Of a stretch of DNA of 16,275 bases, positions 1-14,290 are shown in pieces. The stretch comes from a bacterium (lineage in GTDB: Bacteria; Patescibacteriota; Minisyncoccia; Phycocordibacterales; Phycocordibacteraceae). The translations under genes were made by a program, and so were the position numbers. The notes beneath the pieces were generated by a model, which saw only the letters and a list, made by a program, of their open reading frames with translations, searched no databases and was not told the origin of the DNA. Position 1 is the stretch's first letter, and the number at the start of each line of letters is the position of its first letter. The DNA is taken from NCBI GenBank assembly GCA_021817705.1, contig JAKAGB010000013.1:1-16275 (forward strand), in the 5' to 3' direction.

Positions 1-2
1 GC

Positions 3-374
3 GTACCCCCCCCCCCGACAATTCTGCCAGTCCTCGAGCGCGCGAAAGCAGCGTATATTTTGTGGTCTGAATATCGCCCAACGGTGCCGAGCACCAAACG
101 GTATTCGCTCGGAGAGCGTATCGACGTATTATTAATTGAAATAATCGAATCCATGGCAGCGGCGAGTTTTTTGCCGCGCGGAGAAAAGGAGCCGTATTTG
201 CGCGTCGCGATACGCAAGCTTGATACGCTTCGCATCCTGCTTATGGTTGCATGGGAGTCGCGGGCGCTTGATACCAAGAAATATGGCGCACTCTCTGAAA
301 GCATAGAGACAGTCGGAAGAATGCTCGGCGGGTGGTACGGGCAGACGGTGCGGCAAAACCGAACCCCGCAGTGA
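3..374 (+). CDS. avd: Four-helix-bundle protein (23S rRNA intervening-sequence protein / Avd-like, TIGR02436/PF05635-type); 5' end unresolved at the window edge
   Basis: The track ORF 60..374 (TTG start) stays open in the same frame back to nt 3 (VPPPPTILPVLERAKAAYILWSEY...). Motifs KRYSLGERID, KLDTLRILL and KKYGALSE...GRMLGGW are typical of four-helix-bundle proteins. The gene lies 24 nt from a DGR template repeat. The true start is either off-window or obscured by the C11 tract at 6-16. Confidence 0.8.
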   Translation, partial: VPPPPTILPVLERAKAAYILWSEYRPTVPSTKRYSLGERIDVLLIEIIESMAAASFLPRGEKEPYLRVAIRKLDTLRILLMVAWESRALDTKKYGALSESIETVGRMLGGWYGQTVRQNRTPQ

Positions 375-386
375 CGCGGGGTTCGG
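355..386 (-). terminator. Intrinsic terminator immediately downstream of the TR (minus strand); it overlaps the avd stop codon
   Basis: Perfect 11-bp GC-rich stem (359-369 ccgaaccccgc / 376-386 gcggggttcgg) with a 6-nt loop. On the minus strand it is followed by TTTTG (355-358). The avd TGA (372-374) lies in the loop. There is no T-run on the plus side. Confidence 0.55.
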
Positions 387-397
387 AGCGAAGAGAG

Positions 398-524
398 TTG
401 CGAAGCGGAGCGCAGGATTGTTGTCGTTCCAATCGTTGTTGAGCCAGTTCCAGTTCAGCATGACCTGCCCGTCGTTCTCGATGAGATACGGGACATGCAG
501 GTTGCCATTGCGGTTCCGAACGAT
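398..524 (-). repeat. DGR template repeat (TR), sense = minus strand
   Basis: Gap-free 127-nt alignment to 844-970 (constant offset 446). It has 34 sense-strand adenines, of which 18 differ in the VR. Of the 93 non-A positions only 1 differs (plus-strand nt 452). Read in the VR frame it holds 8 AAC and 2 AAT codons (..NRNGNLHVPYLIENDGQVMLNWNWLNNDWNDNNPALRFA..). The matching reading frame is broken by TAA at 555-557 and has no stop where the VR gene stops. Confidence 0.8.
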
Positions 525-760
525 GCGTACAAGGTGCCATCCGTACCACCAGCCTTAGAATACTCTCCGGCCTGAATCTAATTCGGCATCGTAATGCCAA
601 AGCGCATTGCACCAAGTATCTTCGTTTTGAAGAGTCAGCATGCGGCGCGCTCCTGTGAAAACCGTAGTCCGCAGGATTCTGGACGCATGGATACTGGATT
701 CGGCAGAGGGAAACCGTGATCGCCCTCATACTCGCCTACTACCATGCATAAGCATATACG

Positions 761-792
761 AAAAATCGCCCCGCATGAAGACATGCGGGGCG
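761..792 (-). terminator. Intrinsic terminator of the DGR target gene
   Basis: Perfect 11-bp stem (767-777 cgccccgcatg / 782-792 catgcggggcg) with a 4-nt loop. On the minus strand it is followed by ATTTTT (761-766). It lies about 50 nt downstream of the TAG at 839-841. Confidence 0.7.
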
Positions 793-838
793 GAGTTCAA
801 AGGTTCAGAGTGCGAACCGAGATTCACAGTTCTGAGTA

Positions 839-1423
839 CTAACTTGCGAAGCGGAGCGCAGGATTGTCGTCGCTCCAACCGTTGCAGAGCCAGTTCCGGG
901 ACAGCAAGACCTGCCCGCCGCCCTCGACGAGACACGGGACATGCAGGCTGCCAAGGCGGCTCCGAACGACAGACTTCCATCCGAAGACTGCCTTGCCCTC
1001 GAAGTGCTTGCGGAACACCTCAATACCGAGCTTCTGGATAGCCAGAAGGTCGGCGAGGCCGAGACAGCTCTCGAGCATGTCGTTGCTCGTGAGATAGTCG
1101 TAGATGACCTGGCCCCTCACGGTGCCACTTTTTTGTCCATCGTGGAGCCAGAGGTCGATCTTCGCGAGATCGAAACGCTTCGGACCCGTTTTCTCGAGCT
1201 CGGGGTGCATGATCTTGTCCACCCATTCAGGATAGGCGGGTCGGATGGAGCGGTCGACGCGGATGATGGAGCCCGTGACGGTCTTGGCCTTGGTGAGCGC
1301 CGCGACCTGGCCGGGTTTGCCGACGACGGTTTCTCCGGCGAGGAACTTATCCACGCCTTCTTCGCCGCCGAGTTTGTTCCAGACCGCTTCAATGCGGCCC
1401 AGCGTCTTGGGATACTTACCCAT
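839..1423 (-). CDS. DGR target (variable) protein, 194 aa, unrecognised family; VR encodes residues 152-193
   Basis: Start chosen at ATG 1423 (MGKYPKTL...) because AAGGAG lies 6 nt upstream (1430-1435 on the complement). The track ORF extends to 1507 without a ribosome-binding site. The C-terminus ...VVRSRLGSLHVPCLVEGGGQVLLSRNWLCNGWSDDNPALRFAS is encoded by the VR. I see no signal peptide or TM segment. Confidence 0.85.
   Translation of the reverse strand: MGKYPKTLGRIEAVWNKLGGEEGVDKFLAGETVVGKPGQVAALTKAKTVTGSIIRVDRSIRPAYPEWVDKIMHPELEKTGPKRFDLAKIDLWLHDGQKSGTVRGQVIYDYLTSNDMLESCLGLADLLAIQKLGIEVFRKHFEGKAVFGWKSVVRSRLGSLHVPCLVEGGGQVLLSRNWLCNGWSDDNPALRFAS
844..970 (-). repeat. DGR variable repeat (VR) at the 3' end of the target gene
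   Basis: Counterpart of the TR 398-524. Fifteen codons differ from the TR-templated sequence: V152, S155, L157, S159, C164, V166, G168, G169, L173, S175, R176, C180, G182, S184 and D186. The last 23 nt (844-866) are identical to TR 398-420 even though they contain adenines, which is IMH-like. Confidence 0.8.
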
Positions 1424-1584
1424 GATTGTCTCCTTTTTCATTCGGCTTCTAGCCGATGAACTTCTCGTTTCCCGCGAGTTGAGGGGCTGATGGCACGAAT
1501 TCGCCACAGCGGAGAAAGGCCTAGCGAATAAGCCGCTTTCCGCTATGGCGAACTGGGGTGTGCAGGGAACTACTATCTACAAAT

Positions 1585-1614
1585 ATTATATGCATACTCG
1601 CTCTAAAAAGTCAA
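1585..1614 (-). promoter_or_regulatory. Near-consensus sigma70-type promoter for the DGR target gene
   Basis: On the minus strand: TTGACT (complement of 1609-1614), 18-nt spacer, TATAAT (complement of 1585-1590). It sits in a local AT-rich island and predicts a leader of about 150 nt. Confidence 0.45.
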
Positions 1615-1641
1615 GAGCGCGAGGTAAGGTACTGTACAGAA

Positions 1642-1670
1642 CCGCCCGCCTCCGCAGCGGAGGCGGGCGG
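1642..1670 (-). terminator. GC hairpin downstream of nusG (possible terminator, possibly bidirectional)
   Basis: Arms of 14 nt are perfectly complementary (1642-1655 / 1657-1670), 18 nt after the nusG stop. The minus-side trailer TTCTGTAC is only weakly U-rich. The plus side has CTGCTTTTG. Confidence 0.4.
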
Positions 1671-1688
1671 CTGCTTTTGCGTTACCGA

Positions 1689-2351
1689 TCAGAGTTTGCG
1701 AATCTGGAGGAAGTCCAATTCGACCGGGGTCTCGCGGCCGAACATGCTGACCATCACCTTTACCTTGCCGCGGTCTTCGTCCACGTCGCCGATCTTGCCT
1801 TCCAAGTCCTTGAACGGACCGTCCGCGATCACCACCGGGTCGTCCTTCACGAAGTCGATGCGGTGCTTCGGCGCCTCGGCGTGCATGCGCTTCATGAGGC
1901 TCGCCACTTCCGCTTCGTCCATGGGCACCGGCGTGGTGCCGCTACCCACGAACCCGGTCACGCGCGGCGTGTTGCGCACCACGAACCACGAGTCGTCGTC
2001 CACGAGCATCTTCACGAGGATGTAGCCCGGATAAATCTTCTCTTCTTCGGTCACGCGCTTCCCTGCCTTCACGCGAATCTTCTTCTCGGTAGGCACGATG
2101 ACGTCGAAAATCTTGTGCTCCATGCCGAGCGATTCGATGCGCTGCTTCAGGTTGCGCTCCACCGCGTTCTCGTAGCCCGCGTAGGTATGGATGGCGTACC
2201 AGCGCGCGTCTTCAGGGTTCGGAGCCGTCTCGTCGCGCACCTCTTTTTGCACGCCGGGCGCGATGTCGGCCATGCCGATCTCTTCCGCGACGCCGTCCGT
2301 GTCGGGCATGACTTCGCCCGTGGGTCCGATGTGGATGTTCGTGTCGTCCAT
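1689..2351 (-). CDS. nusG: Transcription termination/antitermination factor NusG (with an N-terminal extension of about 45 aa)
   Basis: RWYAIHTYAGYENAV...NGN domain and a C-terminal KOW (GPFKDLEGKIGDVDEDRGKVKVMVSMFGRETPVELDFLQI). It lies immediately downstream of secE, as in the conserved secE-nusG operon. Confidence 0.95.
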   Translation of the reverse strand: MDDTNIHIGPTGEVMPDTDGVAEEIGMADIAPGVQKEVRDETAPNPEDARWYAIHTYAGYENAVERNLKQRIESLGMEHKIFDVIVPTEKKIRVKAGKRVTEEEKIYPGYILVKMLVDDDSWFVVRNTPRVTGFVGSGTTPVPMDEAEVASLMKRMHAEAPKHRIDFVKDDPVVIADGPFKDLEGKIGDVDEDRGKVKVMVSMFGRETPVELDFLQIRKL

Positions 2352-2361
2352 AGTGGGAAGG

Positions 2362-2547
2362 TTATGCGCCGATAAGGCTCGAGACGAGGCCGCCGAACGC
2401 GTAGTCGAGCACGCCGATCATGGCCGCCACGAAGAGCGCGATGAGGATGATGACGAGCGTATGCGCGAGCGCCGTGCGAGGCGTCGGCCACACGATGTGC
2501 TTGAACTCGTCGCGCACATGCGAAAGGTATGAGGTGAGTGCGTTCAT
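2362..2547 (-). CDS. secE: Preprotein translocase subunit SecE (minimal, single TM, 61 aa)
   Basis: SYLSHVRDEFKHIVWPTPRTALAHTLVIILIALFVAAMIGVLD matches the SecE signature (E..KV.WP...E....T.vV). Synteny with nusG supports the call. Confidence 0.9.
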   Translation of the reverse strand: MNALTSYLSHVRDEFKHIVWPTPRTALAHTLVIILIALFVAAMIGVLDYAFGGLVSSLIGA

Positions 2548-7637: not shown

Positions 7638-8378
7638 CTAGCTGAGCTGCCTAAGCGCATGCGCGAAGTCAGCCGGAAGCGGCGCTTCGAAGGTTTTGCG
7701 CTCACCCGAGGGCAGCGTGATGGCAAGCGAGAGCGCGTGGAGCGCCGGGCGATGAAAGCCAAAGAGGCACGGGCGGCCCTTGGCGTAGAGCGGGTCACAG
7801 ACGACCGGGTGATTCAGGTGTTTGAAATGCACGCGAATCTGGTGCGTACGACCGGTCTTGGGCCTGGCTTCGAGCAAAGAGACCTTCTCGCCGCTTTCCG
7901 GGTCGACGCCGCGCGAAAGCACGCGCCATTCGGTGATGGCAGCGCGATGCGTGCGCGATTCTTCCCCGCGACGCACGCCCCAGCGGGGCGGCGTCGCGCG
8001 GATGCGCACGATTTCTGCCTCTATCACCCCTGCCTCTTTGGCCGGATGCCCGTACACGAGCGCGCGGTACGTTTTTTCCGTCGTGCGCTCTTGGAATTGC
8101 TCTTTGAGGAATGCATAGGCCTCCCTTGTTTTCGCGAGAATCATGACACCCGAGGTGCCGCGGTCGAGCCGATGCACGATGCCCGGACGCGCGATGACTT
8201 CGCCCTGTGGCGACGTCCACGGCTCCCCCACGTCCGCCATCTGCGGATACTGTGCGAGCACCCAGGCCGCCACCGAAGGTTCTTCGGTGCGGCCGTCGCT
8301 GTGCACGATGAGCCCCGCGGGCTTGTTTATGACGAGTACCTCGCTGTCTTCGTATAAAATTGTCGGTTCCAGGGGCAT
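7638..8378 (-). CDS. RluA-family (RluD-like) rRNA pseudouridine synthase lacking an N-terminal S4 domain
   Basis: LVINKPAGLIVH and the catalytic HRLDRGTSGVMILAKT motif; C-terminal TGRTHQIRVHF. Confidence 0.9.
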   Translation of the reverse strand: MPLEPTILYEDSEVLVINKPAGLIVHSDGRTEEPSVAAWVLAQYPQMADVGEPWTSPQGEVIARPGIVHRLDRGTSGVMILAKTREAYAFLKEQFQERTTEKTYRALVYGHPAKEAGVIEAEIVRIRATPPRWGVRRGEESRTHRAAITEWRVLSRGVDPESGEKVSLLEARPKTGRTHQIRVHFKHLNHPVVCDPLYAKGRPCLFGFHRPALHALSLAITLPSGERKTFEAPLPADFAHALRQLS

Positions 8379-8379
8379 G

Positions 8380-8407
8380 TTGCAAATCCTAACAGAAAAG
8401 GTATAGT
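8380..8407 (+). promoter_or_regulatory. Candidate promoter of the HEPN-like gene
   Basis: TTGCAA (8380-8385), 16-nt spacer, TATAGT (8402-8407). GGAG lies 8 nt before the ATG at 8438. Confidence 0.45.
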
Positions 8408-11146: not shown

Positions 11147-11533
11147 ATGCTCATTCCGGCATGTAAAGCGAAAATTCACCGTGCTCGGGTAACGCAAGCC
11201 GACCTCAATTACGTCGGTTCCATTACCATCGACGAAGACCTCTTGGAGGCCGCCGGTATAGGGCCGTACCAATACCTCAATATGACGAGCCTCGAGAACG
11301 GCACGTTCTGGCGCACCTACGCCATGGCCGGCAAGCGCGGCAGCGGCGTCATCTGCCTTAACGGTCCACCGGCGCGGCACTTTCATCCGGGCGACACCAT
11401 CATTATCCTCGCAGAGGTTTGGGTGACGCCCGAAGAAATGGCGACCCTGAACCCGAAGGTGGTGTTCGTGGACGAGCACAATAAGATTACGCGCGTCGAA
11501 TCGCACGCGCTCATTCCGCATCCGCTTGCATAG
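11147..11533 (+). CDS. panD: Aspartate 1-decarboxylase (pyruvoyl-dependent)
   Basis: KAKIHRARVTQADLNYVGSITIDEDLLEAAGI... includes the G-S self-cleavage site. GSGVICLNGPPARHFHPGDTIII is also present. AAGGGAG lies 7 nt upstream of the ATG. Confidence 0.93.
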   Translation: MLIPACKAKIHRARVTQADLNYVGSITIDEDLLEAAGIGPYQYLNMTSLENGTFWRTYAMAGKRGSGVICLNGPPARHFHPGDTIIILAEVWVTPEEMATLNPKVVFVDEHNKITRVESHALIPHPLA

Positions 11534-11537
11534 CGTT

Positions 11538-11568
11538 CCGCGCGGCCTTTCGGCCGCGCGGTTTTTTT
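11538..11568 (+). terminator. Intrinsic terminator of panD
   Basis: Perfect 10-bp stem (ccgcgcggcc tttc ggccgcgcgg) followed by TTTTTTT (11562-11568). It abuts the 3' end of the convergent tRNA-Arg. Confidence 0.75.
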
Positions 11569-11569
11569 G

Positions 11570-11641
11570 TGCCTCGAGTTGGAATCGAACCAACATCAGC
11601 GGCTTAGAAGTCCGCGGTTCTGTCCATTGAACTATCGAGGC
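11570..11641 (-). tRNA. tRNA-Arg (anticodon TCT)
   Basis: Acceptor GCCTCGA / TCGAGGC, D arm GTTC-AATGGACA-GAAC, anticodon arm GCGGA-CTTCTAA-GCCGC (A31/G39 mismatch), T arm GTTGG-TTCGATT-CCAAC, discriminator A. Confidence 0.85.
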
Positions 11642-11713
11642 ACTACTACCCTAGCGCATTTGCATGCGGGGTGCCATAAGAGAGGCGGAGCGAAAATATT
11701 CCGCGCGAGACTT

Positions 11714-12013
11714 CTACCGCGACGGATCCGCGTACTGGTACACGCCGTTCAGGTATTTGGCTTCTTCGGTCGCGCGGTTGGCGAAGAGCGTATGAATGGT
11801 AGTGAGCGACGACGGGTTAAAGACCGGTGGCGTCGAGGTCGCTGCGCCGCCAATGACGCCGCCCGCAGCGACCGTGCTGAACGCGGAGAGATTCCACACG
11901 AGGACGAGCGCGAAGCCGAGCAAGAACACGCCGAGTATGACGAACCAGTCGCGCATGGGATGGAGTCGCTGCCCATAACCGAACGATGCGAGTGAGAGGT
12001 GAGGAAGGTTCAT
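11714..12013 (-). CDS. Small single-pass membrane protein, fourth gene of the pilMNO module
   Basis: Start chosen at ATG 12013, which overlaps the pilO-like stop as ATGA. TM helix WFVILGVFLLGFALVLVW. The track ORF extends to 12175, but that stretch overlaps the pilO-like CDS. Confidence 0.6.
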   Translation of the reverse strand: MNLPHLSLASFGYGQRLHPMRDWFVILGVFLLGFALVLVWNLSAFSTVAAGGVIGGAATSTPPVFNPSSLTTIHTLFANRATEEAKYLNGVYQYADPSR

Positions 12014-12651
12014 AGGTACGAAGCAGAGGACCCGCCGAGCGATACTGGCGACGGAACGACCTTGCCCGGCGTCGATGCTGCCGGCGTTCCTGATGGCGCC
12101 GGGGTTCCGGTATTCGTGCTCGGCGTCGAAGAGCCCGTAATCGAACCGACCAGGATGCCGAGCGTCGCCGACCATCCTTTCGTCTGGTCGAGCGAGGCGG
12201 CAAGGTTCGTCACCGAGACATCATACGGCGCATACTCGACCGCGCCGACCATGCGCATGATGGCATCGAACGAACCGGTGAGCGTGAGCGAAACGTCAAG
12301 CGCCGACCGGCCGCCGACCTTCGTAGCAGAAACGGAGGCGACCGTAACGCCGACGCCAAGCGACTTGCCGCTCGCCTGCAAGGCGTCGATGAAGGACACG
12401 ACGCTCGCTTCGGGCACGAAGTACGCCTGTACCGCGGCTTCGTCGCTCGTGAGCTGTGCGAGCGCGACGCGTGCCGACGAAAGCCGCGTGCTCGCCTCGG
12501 ATGCCGCCTGTATGCGCGACTCGATGCCAGAGACTTGTGCCGAAAGCGCTGCGACCCGCGCGCGCCACAAGCCGTACCCAGCCACGGCAAGCACGCACAC
12601 GACCGCGGCGGCGGTGAATTGGAGCAGAGGCGATGAGCGGAAGCGGTTCAT
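12010..12651 (-). CDS. pilO: PilO-like type IV pilus assembly protein with an S/T/P-rich C-terminal tail
   Basis: Start ATG 12651 (MNRFRSSPLLQF...) overlaps the pilN stop as ATGA. The layout is TM helix, then coiled-coil (AALSAQVSGIESRIQAASEASTRLSSARVAL), then an alpha/beta core. The upstream part of track ORF 12010..13284 is a GC shadow frame (Arg/Pro-rich). Confidence 0.72.
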   Translation of the reverse strand: MNRFRSSPLLQFTAAAVVCVLAVAGYGLWRARVAALSAQVSGIESRIQAASEASTRLSSARVALAQLTSDEAAVQAYFVPEASVVSFIDALQASGKSLGVGVTVASVSATKVGGRSALDVSLTLTGSFDAIMRMVGAVEYAPYDVSVTNLAASLDQTKGWSATLGILVGSITGSSTPSTNTGTPAPSGTPAASTPGKVVPSPVSLGGSSASYL

Positions 12652-13202
12652 GGCGCGAGGGTTATAAGGATGGAGAACGCGATGTTCGTGCTCTGTGCGT
12701 ACACGGAAACCGGCAGGTCGGCCGCGGTGGCGAAGGCGCTCCCCTGCAATGCGACCTGGTAGCTCCGGAGCGCATCGCGCGTAAGGGCGGTACCGGAAAG
12801 GGAGAGCGTCCCCGGGCCTTTCGCCGAAGGCGGCGTGTAGGAAAGCGCGGCGAGTGTGATGCCGGGTCGCGGAACGAGGAGTGCGGTGCGTACGGCGAGC
12901 GCGGCATCGGGCGCGTTCGCGAGCGCAGCGAGTGCCTGCGTATCGGAAGAAAGCGCGGCGAGTCGCGCCGAAAGCGCGGCGCCGTCGGTCGACGACAGCG
13001 ACGCGGTGACGGACGCGAGCTGCGCGTTCTTCGAGGCGAGCGTGCTTGAAAGATACTGATAGGTCGGCGCGAGGAGGAGTGCGGCGCTTGCAGAAAGGAC
13101 GGATGCCGCGACAAGCGCCACGACGCCGAGTCGTAGGAAGTATGCGCGCCGCAAGAGGGCGATGCGTTCGTCGGGCAGGAGGTTGGTGAGCGGCGTGGTC
13201 AT
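12648..13202 (-). CDS. pilN: PilN-like type IV pilus assembly protein
   Basis: Start ATG 13202 (MTTPLTNLLPDERIALLRRAYFLRLGVVALV...) overlaps the pilM stop as ATGA. The NLLP motif followed by a TM helix is typical of PilN. Confidence 0.75.
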   Translation of the reverse strand: MTTPLTNLLPDERIALLRRAYFLRLGVVALVAASVLSASAALLLAPTYQYLSSTLASKNAQLASVTASLSSTDGAALSARLAALSSDTQALAALANAPDAALAVRTALLVPRPGITLAALSYTPPSAKGPGTLSLSGTALTRDALRSYQVALQGSAFATAADLPVSVYAQSTNIAFSILITLAP

Positions 13203-14290
13203 AGGTAGGCGCGGAGCGCGAGGCCGACGGCGGTCGCGTACGCGAGCGACTCGCTGTAGGAGAACGGCGGAATCCACTCGTCACGCGACGCGAAGTTCAC
13301 GAACACGTCGCCGAGCGAGACCGGGATACGGAGGGCACCCTCAAGGTATTCGGGCAGTCCGCGCACGGATGCGTTGCCGCCTGCGATGACCGCACGCGCC
13401 ACGGGTTCATGGTGGCCTGAGAGCGCCGCCCGTCCCTGCCAATACTCGAGGTTTCGTGCAATCTCGTCCTTCACTGCGGATACGGTGGAGAGCATCGCCG
13501 CGAGGTAGTCCTCGTTGCCTGGCGCGGGCACGATGCCGCGATCCACCTTGATGCGGCGCGCCTCGAGCTCCGTGACGCCGAAGTGTTTCTGCACCGCAAG
13601 CGTGAGCGCGTGGCCGCCGATGCCGATGGTGGTGGTGAATCGCGGGATGCCGCGCGAGACGATGACGAGCTTCGTCGTGGTCTTGCCGATATCGATGAGG
13701 AGCACCGTATCGGTCTCCCCTGCGGGTAGGAGCGAGCGCGCGAACGCGAACGACTCGCTCTCCAGGGAACACGCGGTGACGCCGGCGGCATCAAGCGCAG
13801 AGAGCATGCCGTCTACGATTCGGCCCGCGAATCCGACGCCGACGACCGTCATCGCCCCCGCATTCGTGCGCCCGACGGGCACGATGTCGAACGCGGTGTT
13901 CGAAGGCGGAAGCGGGACGAGCTCGTCGAGATGCTGTTCGACGGCGACGCGCCACTCCTCCTTGTTCGAGCCTTCGACGTCGGCCTCGAAGAGGTACGAT
14001 TTCGATTCCGCGAGCGCGACATGCGCTTCGGCTATGCCGGCGCGCTTCGCCGCCTGCGCGATGGCCGCCGATGCTTTGGCGGCGTCGACTATCTCGCCCG
14101 CAGAAACGACGTCGGCGCCGAAACGGACTTCGGCGGATGCTGCAAGGACGATGCCGCGCGACGTTTCCGCAAGTCGCACCGCCTTCACGCCGCTCGTCGA
14201 AATCTCGATGCCCGCGGGCGCCGGCATGAGGTAGCGCGGCGGCAAGAGTGCCACGCGGAGCCGTTCTCGGATATCGAACGTCATAGGCAC
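13199..14290 (-). CDS. pilM: Type IV pilus assembly protein PilM (actin-like ATPase fold)
   Basis: GIEISTSGVKAVRL..., LLIDIGKTTTKLVIV... and IGIGGHALT... show the actin/FtsA-like pattern, with synteny to pilN/pilO. The start is GTG 14290 or ATG 14284. Confidence 0.88.
   Translation of the reverse strand: MPMTFDIRERLRVALLPPRYLMPAPAGIEISTSGVKAVRLAETSRGIVLAASAEVRFGADVVSAGEIVDAAKASAAIAQAAKRAGIAEAHVALAESKSYLFEADVEGSNKEEWRVAVEQHLDELVPLPPSNTAFDIVPVGRTNAGAMTVVGVGFAGRIVDGMLSALDAAGVTACSLESESFAFARSLLPAGETDTVLLIDIGKTTTKLVIVSRGIPRFTTTIGIGGHALTLAVQKHFGVTELEARRIKVDRGIVPAPGNEDYLAAMLSTVSAVKDEIARNLEYWQGRAALSGHHEPVARAVIAGGNASVRGLPEYLEGALRIPVSLGDVFVNFASRDEWIPPFSYSESLAYATAVGLALRAYL

Follow-up and report, generated by a model that had tools for sequence, protein, structure and literature searches.

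The stretch of DNA analysed here, positions 1 to 16,275 of contig JAKAGB010000013.1 and hereafter called the window, carries near its first nucleotide a gene cassette with the composition of a diversity-generating retroelement (DGR). The host is an uncultured bacterium of the Patescibacteria, or Candidate Phyla Radiation (CPR). Read in the orientation of the target gene, the locus comprises nusG, the target gene with its variable repeat (VR), a terminator hairpin, a structured RNA domain, the template repeat (TR), a further hairpin, the gene avd on the reversed strand, a C/G simple-sequence repeat, a reverse transcriptase (RT) gene, and rplK. The cassette is chromosomal and lies between nusG and rplK (window 839-2547, and 11431-12896 of the same-strain contig L001). 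All coordinates are window positions, and the sense strand of the target gene, TR and VR is the minus strand. Six public contigs of the same strain are 99.8-100% identical to the window over up to 11 kb, and they extend past its nt 1.

The TR (398-524) and the VR (844-970) form a gapless 127-nt alignment with 19 differences, and the similarity ends abruptly at both edges. The alignment was recomputed, and it returns the same repeat and the same 19 positions as the original prediction, which had been made from the sequence alone. Of the 34 sense-strand adenines in the TR, 18 are changed in the VR (12 A>G, 4 A>T, and 2 A>C), while just one of the 93 non-adenine bases is changed (T>C at 452, minus strand). 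These counts also agree with those first reported, and the adenine bias has a one-sided Fisher p of 1.1e-11. The mismatches are thus adenine-specific and not spread over all four template bases. In the frame of the target gene, each of the 19 differences is at codon position 1 or 2, never at position 3, and the TR adenines are distributed over positions 1, 2 and 3 as 14/18/1. The TR contains 9 AAC and 2 AAT codons; the AAT count had been given correctly before, and the AAC count had been given as 8. This adenine-rich AAC/AAT layout is the classic DGR template design. Computation shows that no substitution at the 30 variable TR adenines can produce a stop codon, and that the 20 variable codons allow about 4.5e17 protein variants. 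Neither the window nor the 20-kb contigs contain a partner for the VR other than the TR. At its 3′ end the VR has 24 nt (844-867) that are G+C-rich, are the same as in the TR with no adenine changed, and are directly followed by divergence. By its sequence, this segment resembles the 'initiation of mutagenic homing' (IMH) sequence of known DGRs and may be called IMH-like.

The VR is the 3′ end of the target gene, as had been claimed, and the target protein is found in identical form in 6 public contigs by exact look-up. Homologues number 203 at E<=0.001. All have about 200 residues, none has a Pfam domain, and those with names belong to Patescibacteria lineages, in addition to one labelled Nanoarchaeia. 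The 43 C-terminal residues of the family contain conserved positions (VP.L, W.WL, PALRF) interleaved with hypervariable ones, and the hypervariable positions coincide with the AAC-coded positions of the window TR. The AlphaFold model of the target, built with 60 homologues, has a predicted local distance difference test score (pLDDT) of 89 overall and above 96 for residues 60-190. In this model the VR comprises a beta-hairpin (160-178), the next loop, and the final strand, and the rewritten residues on these C-terminal strands and loops presumably form a ligand-binding surface. A sequence search of the target against the PDB gave nothing meaningful. The family is a widespread 200-aa CPR protein with a confident predicted fold unlike anything solved, and is a candidate new scaffold for massive sequence variation. 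The change at 452 replaces W176, a Trp in more than 90% of the target family, by Arg in the VR of this strain. The TR keeps the Trp codon, so a fresh homing event would restore the residue. The G+C-rich hairpin downstream of the VR has the look of a terminator for the target gene, and its sequence could possibly also form a hairpin or cruciform that assists homing.

The avd gene (accessory variability determinant) is convergent with the TR and divergent from the RT gene, and lies on the strand opposite to the TR, VR and target. Its likely ATG is situated 16-18 nt beyond the window start. The Avd protein matches NCBIfam NF033474 DivGenRetAVD (E = 8.8e-15, 54.9 bits with a cut-off of 80, 102/104 profile positions) and Pfam PF22296 (bAvd; E = 3e-8, 34.4 bits with a cut-off of 40). 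The orthologue from locus L009 reaches 42.3 bits against PF22296, which is above the cut-off. A sequence search of Avd against the PDB found nothing meaningful. The profile matches bear out the earlier identification of an Avd-type gene beside the TR; the gap between them, put at 24 nt, is 23 nt (stop at 374 to 398).

No RT is present within the window, which ends 8 nt short of the RT start codon (GTG). The DGR-type RT that the original prediction had left to be sought is found in longer same-strain contigs. Contigs L001-L004 and L007 encode a full-length RT of 337 aa on the minus strand, starting 8 nt past the window edge, with the DGR hallmark motif LGNLTSQ and the catalytic motif YADD. Among solved structures the best match is 8ub7_A (E = 1.1e-44), a chain 100% identical to brt of Bordetella phage BPP-1, and group II intron RTs follow at 4e-22. 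NCBIfam has no DGR-RT model, and all its other RT families score far under their cut-offs. An RT start upstream of the C/G tract, as in public calls of 367 and 418 aa, was considered and rejected. The orthologues begin with M-x-R-I just after the tract, some have a stop a few codons upstream, and the longer calls shift with tract length. Public RT calls have 337, 347, 367 or 418 aa, and in three contigs the call length tracks the tract, with 10 C giving 337 aa, 12 C giving 367 aa, and 11 C giving 418 aa. The public gene calls of this region have the look of artefacts (241-729 and 132-461 on the minus strand, L002 11343-12446, and L003 7562-8818). One public 162-aa 'protein' covers the TR RNA and antisense avd, and avd itself is uncalled.

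The locus shows an adenine-specific repeat pair, a VR at the 3′ end of a gene, AAY codons in the TR, a DGR-type RT, Avd, and a VR that varies while the TR is constant. It is almost certainly a genuine chromosomal DGR of an uncultured Patescibacteria bacterium. The reading as a DGR that was first proposed is supported, with the repeats, target and Avd present in the window and the RT just beyond its edge.

Same-strain assemblies show variation of the VR. At 90% identity, the target clusters with one other sequence, P0002, which comes from two further samples. At the DNA level, the P0002 allele departs from the window VR in just two changes, at 870 and 874, each A-to-G at a TR-adenine site, and the TR is identical in all seven longer same-strain loci that extend over it. 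The variation between samples thus occurs only at template-adenine sites, as judged from assemblies. Two unitigs from two further samples (L061 and L062) begin at 869, 1 nt after a polymorphic site. A de Bruijn unitig breaks at a within-sample polymorphism, and this start suggests that both VR alleles occur within single samples. This modest evidence points to an element that is live or recently live. An inactive relic, with a VR written in the past and now fixed, would agree with the two alleles in ten assemblies, with the clean assembly of the VR in 8/10, with the 12-nt tract in 4/10 assemblies that leaves avd without an in-frame start, and with the one accumulated non-adenine difference. 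Such a relic is nevertheless improbable. The RT is full length with its catalytic motifs, Avd is intact, and the TR is identical in all longer loci tested. Furthermore, the two alleles differ at TR-adenine sites only, for which a rough estimate of chance is about 2e-4 given 6-10 differences per 8.3 kb, and the two unitigs break exactly at the polymorphic site.

Related loci were searched for in species-representative genomes with a 12-sequence target alignment as seed, since the 60-sequence alignment was too diverse. The scan found 45 loci with a target homologue, almost all labelled as Patescibacteria lineages, and 20 of these possess an A-biased TR/VR pair of their own. In all 22 genome loci in which avd is detectable, it is on the reversed strand, and it has this reversed position in every homologous locus with an RT. 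In metagenome loci found by an Avd profile, avd and RT are divergent in 72 of 72 with a complete 5′ region. The layout of target with VR, TR, reversed avd, and RT is common to about 100 Patescibacteria loci.

The TR is embedded in a conserved RNA unit. In 20 loci a common unit of 272-287 nt starts with AAAAAUGAAGAUACUUGGU and ends with a hairpin and UUUUG; in the window it runs from 629 to 350 on the minus strand, about 280 nt. Upstream of the TR is a structured 5′ domain with the helices P2 to P4, and a closing stem, P1, encloses both this domain and the TR (Table 1). The lineage of the window has a C-G pair in P1 where other loci have U-A. In the 20-locus alignment, 97% of the cells pair, compared with 32-51% when the partner is slid, and 17 of 28 pairs show compensatory changes, compared with 4-7 when slid. 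None of 500 shuffles matched the observed pairing. An Rfam search of the TR region found no family, and its three weak matches are due to chance. The region 398-641 might have been a translated paralogue, which would have counted against a DGR, and the part upstream of the TR is structured non-coding RNA and no such paralogue. Two points reported before are correct: the frame of the TR copy has a TAA at 555-557, and this copy has no stop at the place where the gene copy stops. This gives a covariation-supported model of the TR RNA for the CPR DGR clade, whose RNA was previously undescribed. The searchable CPR DGR literature has no mention of the 5′ domain.

The hairpin and UUUUG after the TR are present in 20/20 loci with unrelated stem sequences, and in the window the hairpin overlaps the avd stop codon on the opposite strand. 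Its sequence suggests a stem-loop that binds a protein or else an intrinsic terminator for the TR RNA. In addition, a candidate long-range duplex joins two 14-nt arms that flank the TR. Most loci have comparable duplexes of -15 to -29 kcal/mol in a shifting register, and covariation for it was sought across the loci and not shown because of these shifts. Its arm at 327-340 is the antisense of the conserved Avd MLGGW codons, which constrain it. As a candidate only, this duplex might have the role of the BPP-1 'cPRT Stop' duplex. By analogy, the whole unit of about 280 nt would be the expected counterpart of the TR-flanking RNA of BPP-1, arranged differently.

The TR could also have arisen without a retroelement, as an ordinary duplicated fragment of the gene: a pseudogene copy of its 3′ end, changed since then by normal mutation or gene conversion. 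This would explain the existence of a direct repeat and nothing beyond it. It is already refuted by the substitution spectrum, in which 18/19 differences lie at one base of one copy (p = 1e-11) with all changes at codon positions 1 or 2. An adjacent RT and Avd, the recurrence of the design in 20 other species that each have an A-biased pair of their own, and flanks of covarying RNA structure also contradict it, and such an origin has practically no likelihood left.

A mechanism for the DGR can be proposed on the model of BPP-1. The minus strand from about 629 to about 350 would be transcribed into an RNA of about 280 nt, and the folded 5′ domain, the closing stem P1, and the 3′ hairpin would present the TR to the RT-Avd complex. 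The RT would then prime on the RNA itself and copy the TR into cDNA, reading C, G and U faithfully and inserting any nucleotide opposite A. The cDNA would replace the VR of the target gene, with the 3′ boundary set by the invariant G+C-rich segment 844-867. Each event would re-draw up to 20 codons from the repertoire computed above, and would never create a stop codon.

No observation contradicts the DGR reading, and the points that weigh on the other side are the following. Position 452 is a lone difference at a non-adenine. Both Avd matches are under the curated cut-offs of their profiles. The target fold has no significant match in structure searches of the PDB or BFVD, and a C-type lectin or FGE-like fold, as in Mtd, TvpA and AvpA, was not found for the VR domain. 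The G+C-rich hairpin is 51 nt away from the VR, whereas it is adjacent in BPP-1. Just two VR alleles occur among the ten same-strain assemblies, and therefore activity in situ is low or episodic and diversification is infrequent. The case for ongoing mutagenesis consists of these two alleles and two contig breaks, at assembly level. Cis-priming, adenine mutagenesis, and homing are all carried over from BPP-1 by analogy.

The C/G simple-sequence repeat lies in the first codons of avd, with the likely ATG 24 nt upstream of the run and outside the window. In the RT sense, the run is followed by TACGCT, 7 nt, and the GTG, and it lies 13 nt upstream of this start codon. The open reading frames of avd and RT meet head to head and share about 11 nt. 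The tract measures 10 nt (n = 2), 11 nt (n = 4), or 12 nt (n = 4) in ten same-strain assemblies. No other homopolymer indel occurs among these assemblies, in which the A7, T7 and C6 runs do not change in length. A tract of 11 C puts avd in frame with the likely ATG, one of 10 C puts it in frame with a different ATG, and one of 12 C leaves its frame with a TGA two codons ahead of the run. A 1-nt difference in the tract is also seen in each of two further pairs of near-identical loci.

The repeat is widely kept at this position. A C run of 7-14 nt is present in 15/17 genome loci, and one of 6-12 nt (mode 9-10) in 58/72 metagenome loci with a complete 5′ region. Overall, a C/G run of 6-14 nt is kept at the site in about three quarters of some 90 related loci (L009-L049 and L063-L142). 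Long repeats in 318 kb of related loci are at the avd/RT site in 16 of 19 cases. A few loci have other repeats at the same site, namely (GT/CA)n in L017, L027 and L129, and (CAGC)n in L093, neither of which codes for poly-proline. About 12 loci have no repeat, and at least one of them (L107) starts Avd directly with ATG. The Candidatus Adlerbacteria locus L024 has a C10 run (2019-2028) about 470 nt downstream of its target homologue. TR, Avd, and RT were not found there in the searches made, and the locus could be a divergent or degraded cassette.

The site has the marks of a contingency locus, which are a hypermutable repeat in the 5′ coding region or promoter and length polymorphism in close relatives. 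From its sequence features, it is quite possible, if somewhat short of probable, that the repeat gates the DGR machinery in this Patescibacteria clade as an on/off contingency switch. On this more speculative reading, slippage of the tract would shift the Avd frame or the promoter spacing of a leaderless RT mRNA, or both, and only the shifting subpopulation of cells would diversify the target protein. In 19/64 loci, TAnnnT comes after the run, with 7 nt between it and the RT start codon. The TAnnnT is a -10-like hexamer with a spacing suited to a leaderless mRNA, and the run could instead be the RT promoter spacer. Inspection by eye upstream of the tract gave no convincing -35 element. Relative to the nearest upstream ATG, the tract is in frame in 17, out of frame in 37, and otherwise placed in 4 of 58 metagenome loci, which is the random expectation and gives no proof of a purely coding ON/OFF switch. 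A frame this close to random cannot tell a coding switch from a promoter switch or no switch.

As the main alternative, the tract may not be a switch at all, with its lengths being short-read homopolymer assembly errors and its conservation reflecting a poly-proline N-terminus of Avd or a G-rich RT leader. All tract lengths were read from consensus assemblies, errors are common in runs of 10-12 G, and in the window lineage and L009 the tract encodes an in-frame PPPP. The frame may also be of no importance, as the 17/58 in frame with a nearby ATG suggest. This explanation remains rather unlikely. Assembly errors do not readily agree with unvarying A7, T7 and C6 runs, or with the 1-nt differences in two further near-identical pairs. 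Pure C runs are kept at about 50-57% Avd identity despite four proline codons, the few (CA/GT)n or (CAGC)n repeats at the same site are unable to encode poly-proline, and 16/19 such repeats in 318 kb gather at this one site. A switching role of the repeat, if true, would add a stochastic on/off layer to a targeted mutator. The slippery repeat thereby offers a concrete hypothesis on how cells could control when a DGR fires. No link of a DGR or Avd to such repeats was found in the searchable literature; an earlier mention is possible in the main CPR DGR paper (Paul et al. 2017), which reportedly deals with CPR/Patescibacteria DGRs and lay outside the search.

Table 1. Features of the DGR locus in window coordinates
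Feature	Position	Strand	Description
Simple-sequence repeat	6..16	+	C11 in avd sense, G11 in RT sense; equals L003 7781-7791
avd (accessory variability determinant)	1..374	+	read in frame 3-374; 5′ end cut by window edge
Hairpin and U-run	354..386	-	hairpin 359-386 with 11-bp stem; U-run 354-358; directly 3′ of TR
Candidate long-range duplex	541..554 with 327..340	-	14 nt, 93% complementary; arms flank TR
Template repeat (TR)	398..524	-	adenine-rich donor copy, invariant; from recomputed alignment
5′ domain of TR RNA	525..629	-	105 nt, structured; from 20-locus alignment, RNAalifold, and pair counts
Helix P1	619-624 with 389-394	-	closing stem, encloses 5′ domain and TR; 3′ arm UCUUCG
Helix P2	601-612 with 527-538	-	12 bp; from RNAalifold
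Helix P3	595-598 with 585-588	-	small hairpin; from RNAalifold
Helix P4	569-572 with 551-554	-	small hairpin; from RNAalifold
Hairpin and T-run	767..792	-	G+C-rich, 11-bp stem, 4-nt loop; 51 nt downstream of VR
Variable repeat (VR)	844..970	-	last 42 codons and 1 nt of target gene
Target gene	839..1423	-	194-aa open reading frame, 3′ end is VR; Patescibacteria-wide family of about 200 aa, no known domain

The other genes of the window are housekeeping genes and include secE, nusG, SIMPL, mscL, rplS, rluD, uppS, panD, pilM/N, ruvX, and seven tRNAs. The cassette is inserted into the secE-nusG-rplK-rplA cluster, which is normally contiguous and is split by it. A type IV pilus assembly cluster (11714-14290) is located 10 kb from the DGR and contains pilM (13199-14290), a weak pilN-like open reading frame (12648-13277), and a further open reading frame. 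Contig L002 has a strongly divergent patch of 65 nt at window 8337-8403, with many substitutions and small indels, which covers the start of rluD (7638-8378) and the part just upstream. Outside this patch it is nearly identical across the rest of 11 kb. The patch may be a local recombination tract or a mis-assembly.

The C/G repeat resembles the contingency loci of other bacteria in having a homopolymer of 7-14 nt, or a di- or tetranucleotide repeat, in the first codons and/or the promoter spacer. Poly-G/C tracts are contingency repeats in Campylobacter and Neisseria genes, and repeats are found inside the Neisseria porA and opc promoters and the divergent hifA/hifB promoter of Haemophilus. 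As in these loci, the length differs between near-identical genomes, and reference genomes are commonly one unit away from being in frame. In contrast to them, the repeat described here is known from sequence alone, its host is an uncultured CPR bacterium, and the function it would control is a mutagenesis machine and not a surface antigen.

The prototype DGR of phage BPP-1 (mtd-avd-TR-brt) shares with the window element the adenine-specific transfer from TR to VR, the VR at the 3′ end of the target gene, and an AAC-rich TR with adenines at codon positions 1 and 2. Both have Avd and an RT with the (I/L)GxxxSQ motif, and brt is the closest solved relative of the RT. The invariant G+C-rich 3′ end of VR and TR and the mutually pairing RNA on both sides of the TR are also common to the two. 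In BPP-1, the RNA on either side of the TR is essential; its two segments form pairs with one another and bind RT-Avd, and catalysis needs Avd (bioRxiv 10.1101/2023.10.23.563531). Unlike BPP-1, whose DGR is in a phage, the window element is chromosomal in a CPR bacterium. Its avd is on the opposite strand between TR and RT, so that the RNA downstream of the TR is antisense avd and not a non-coding spacer. It has a 105-nt structured domain upstream of the TR and a repeat at the avd and RT starts. Its target has no detectable Mtd-like C-type lectin fold, and its hairpin is 51 nt from the VR.

The closest likeness is with the DGRs described from CPR bacteria. These form their own cell-encoded clade, 'DGR clade 2', with targets that have no recognisable domain (Roux et al. 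2021, PMC8144416). According to Wu et al. 2018 (PMC5758913), who describe a 'CPR set', 90% of CPR DGRs have the B3 architecture, with another order or orientation of avd and TR, ribosomal-protein genes occur inside or beside several of them, and G+C-rich inverted repeats follow the VR in only 34% of DGRs. The layout here is inferred to be equivalent to B3 from the description of that architecture. The window element agrees with the CPR DGRs in host group, cellular location, a domain-less target, an avd/TR arrangement unlike the prototype, and ribosomal-protein gene neighbours. It belongs to the published CPR type, a kind of DGR already known, and adds one more well-documented member with a natural pair of VR alleles, an RT from sister contigs, and a model of the TR RNA.

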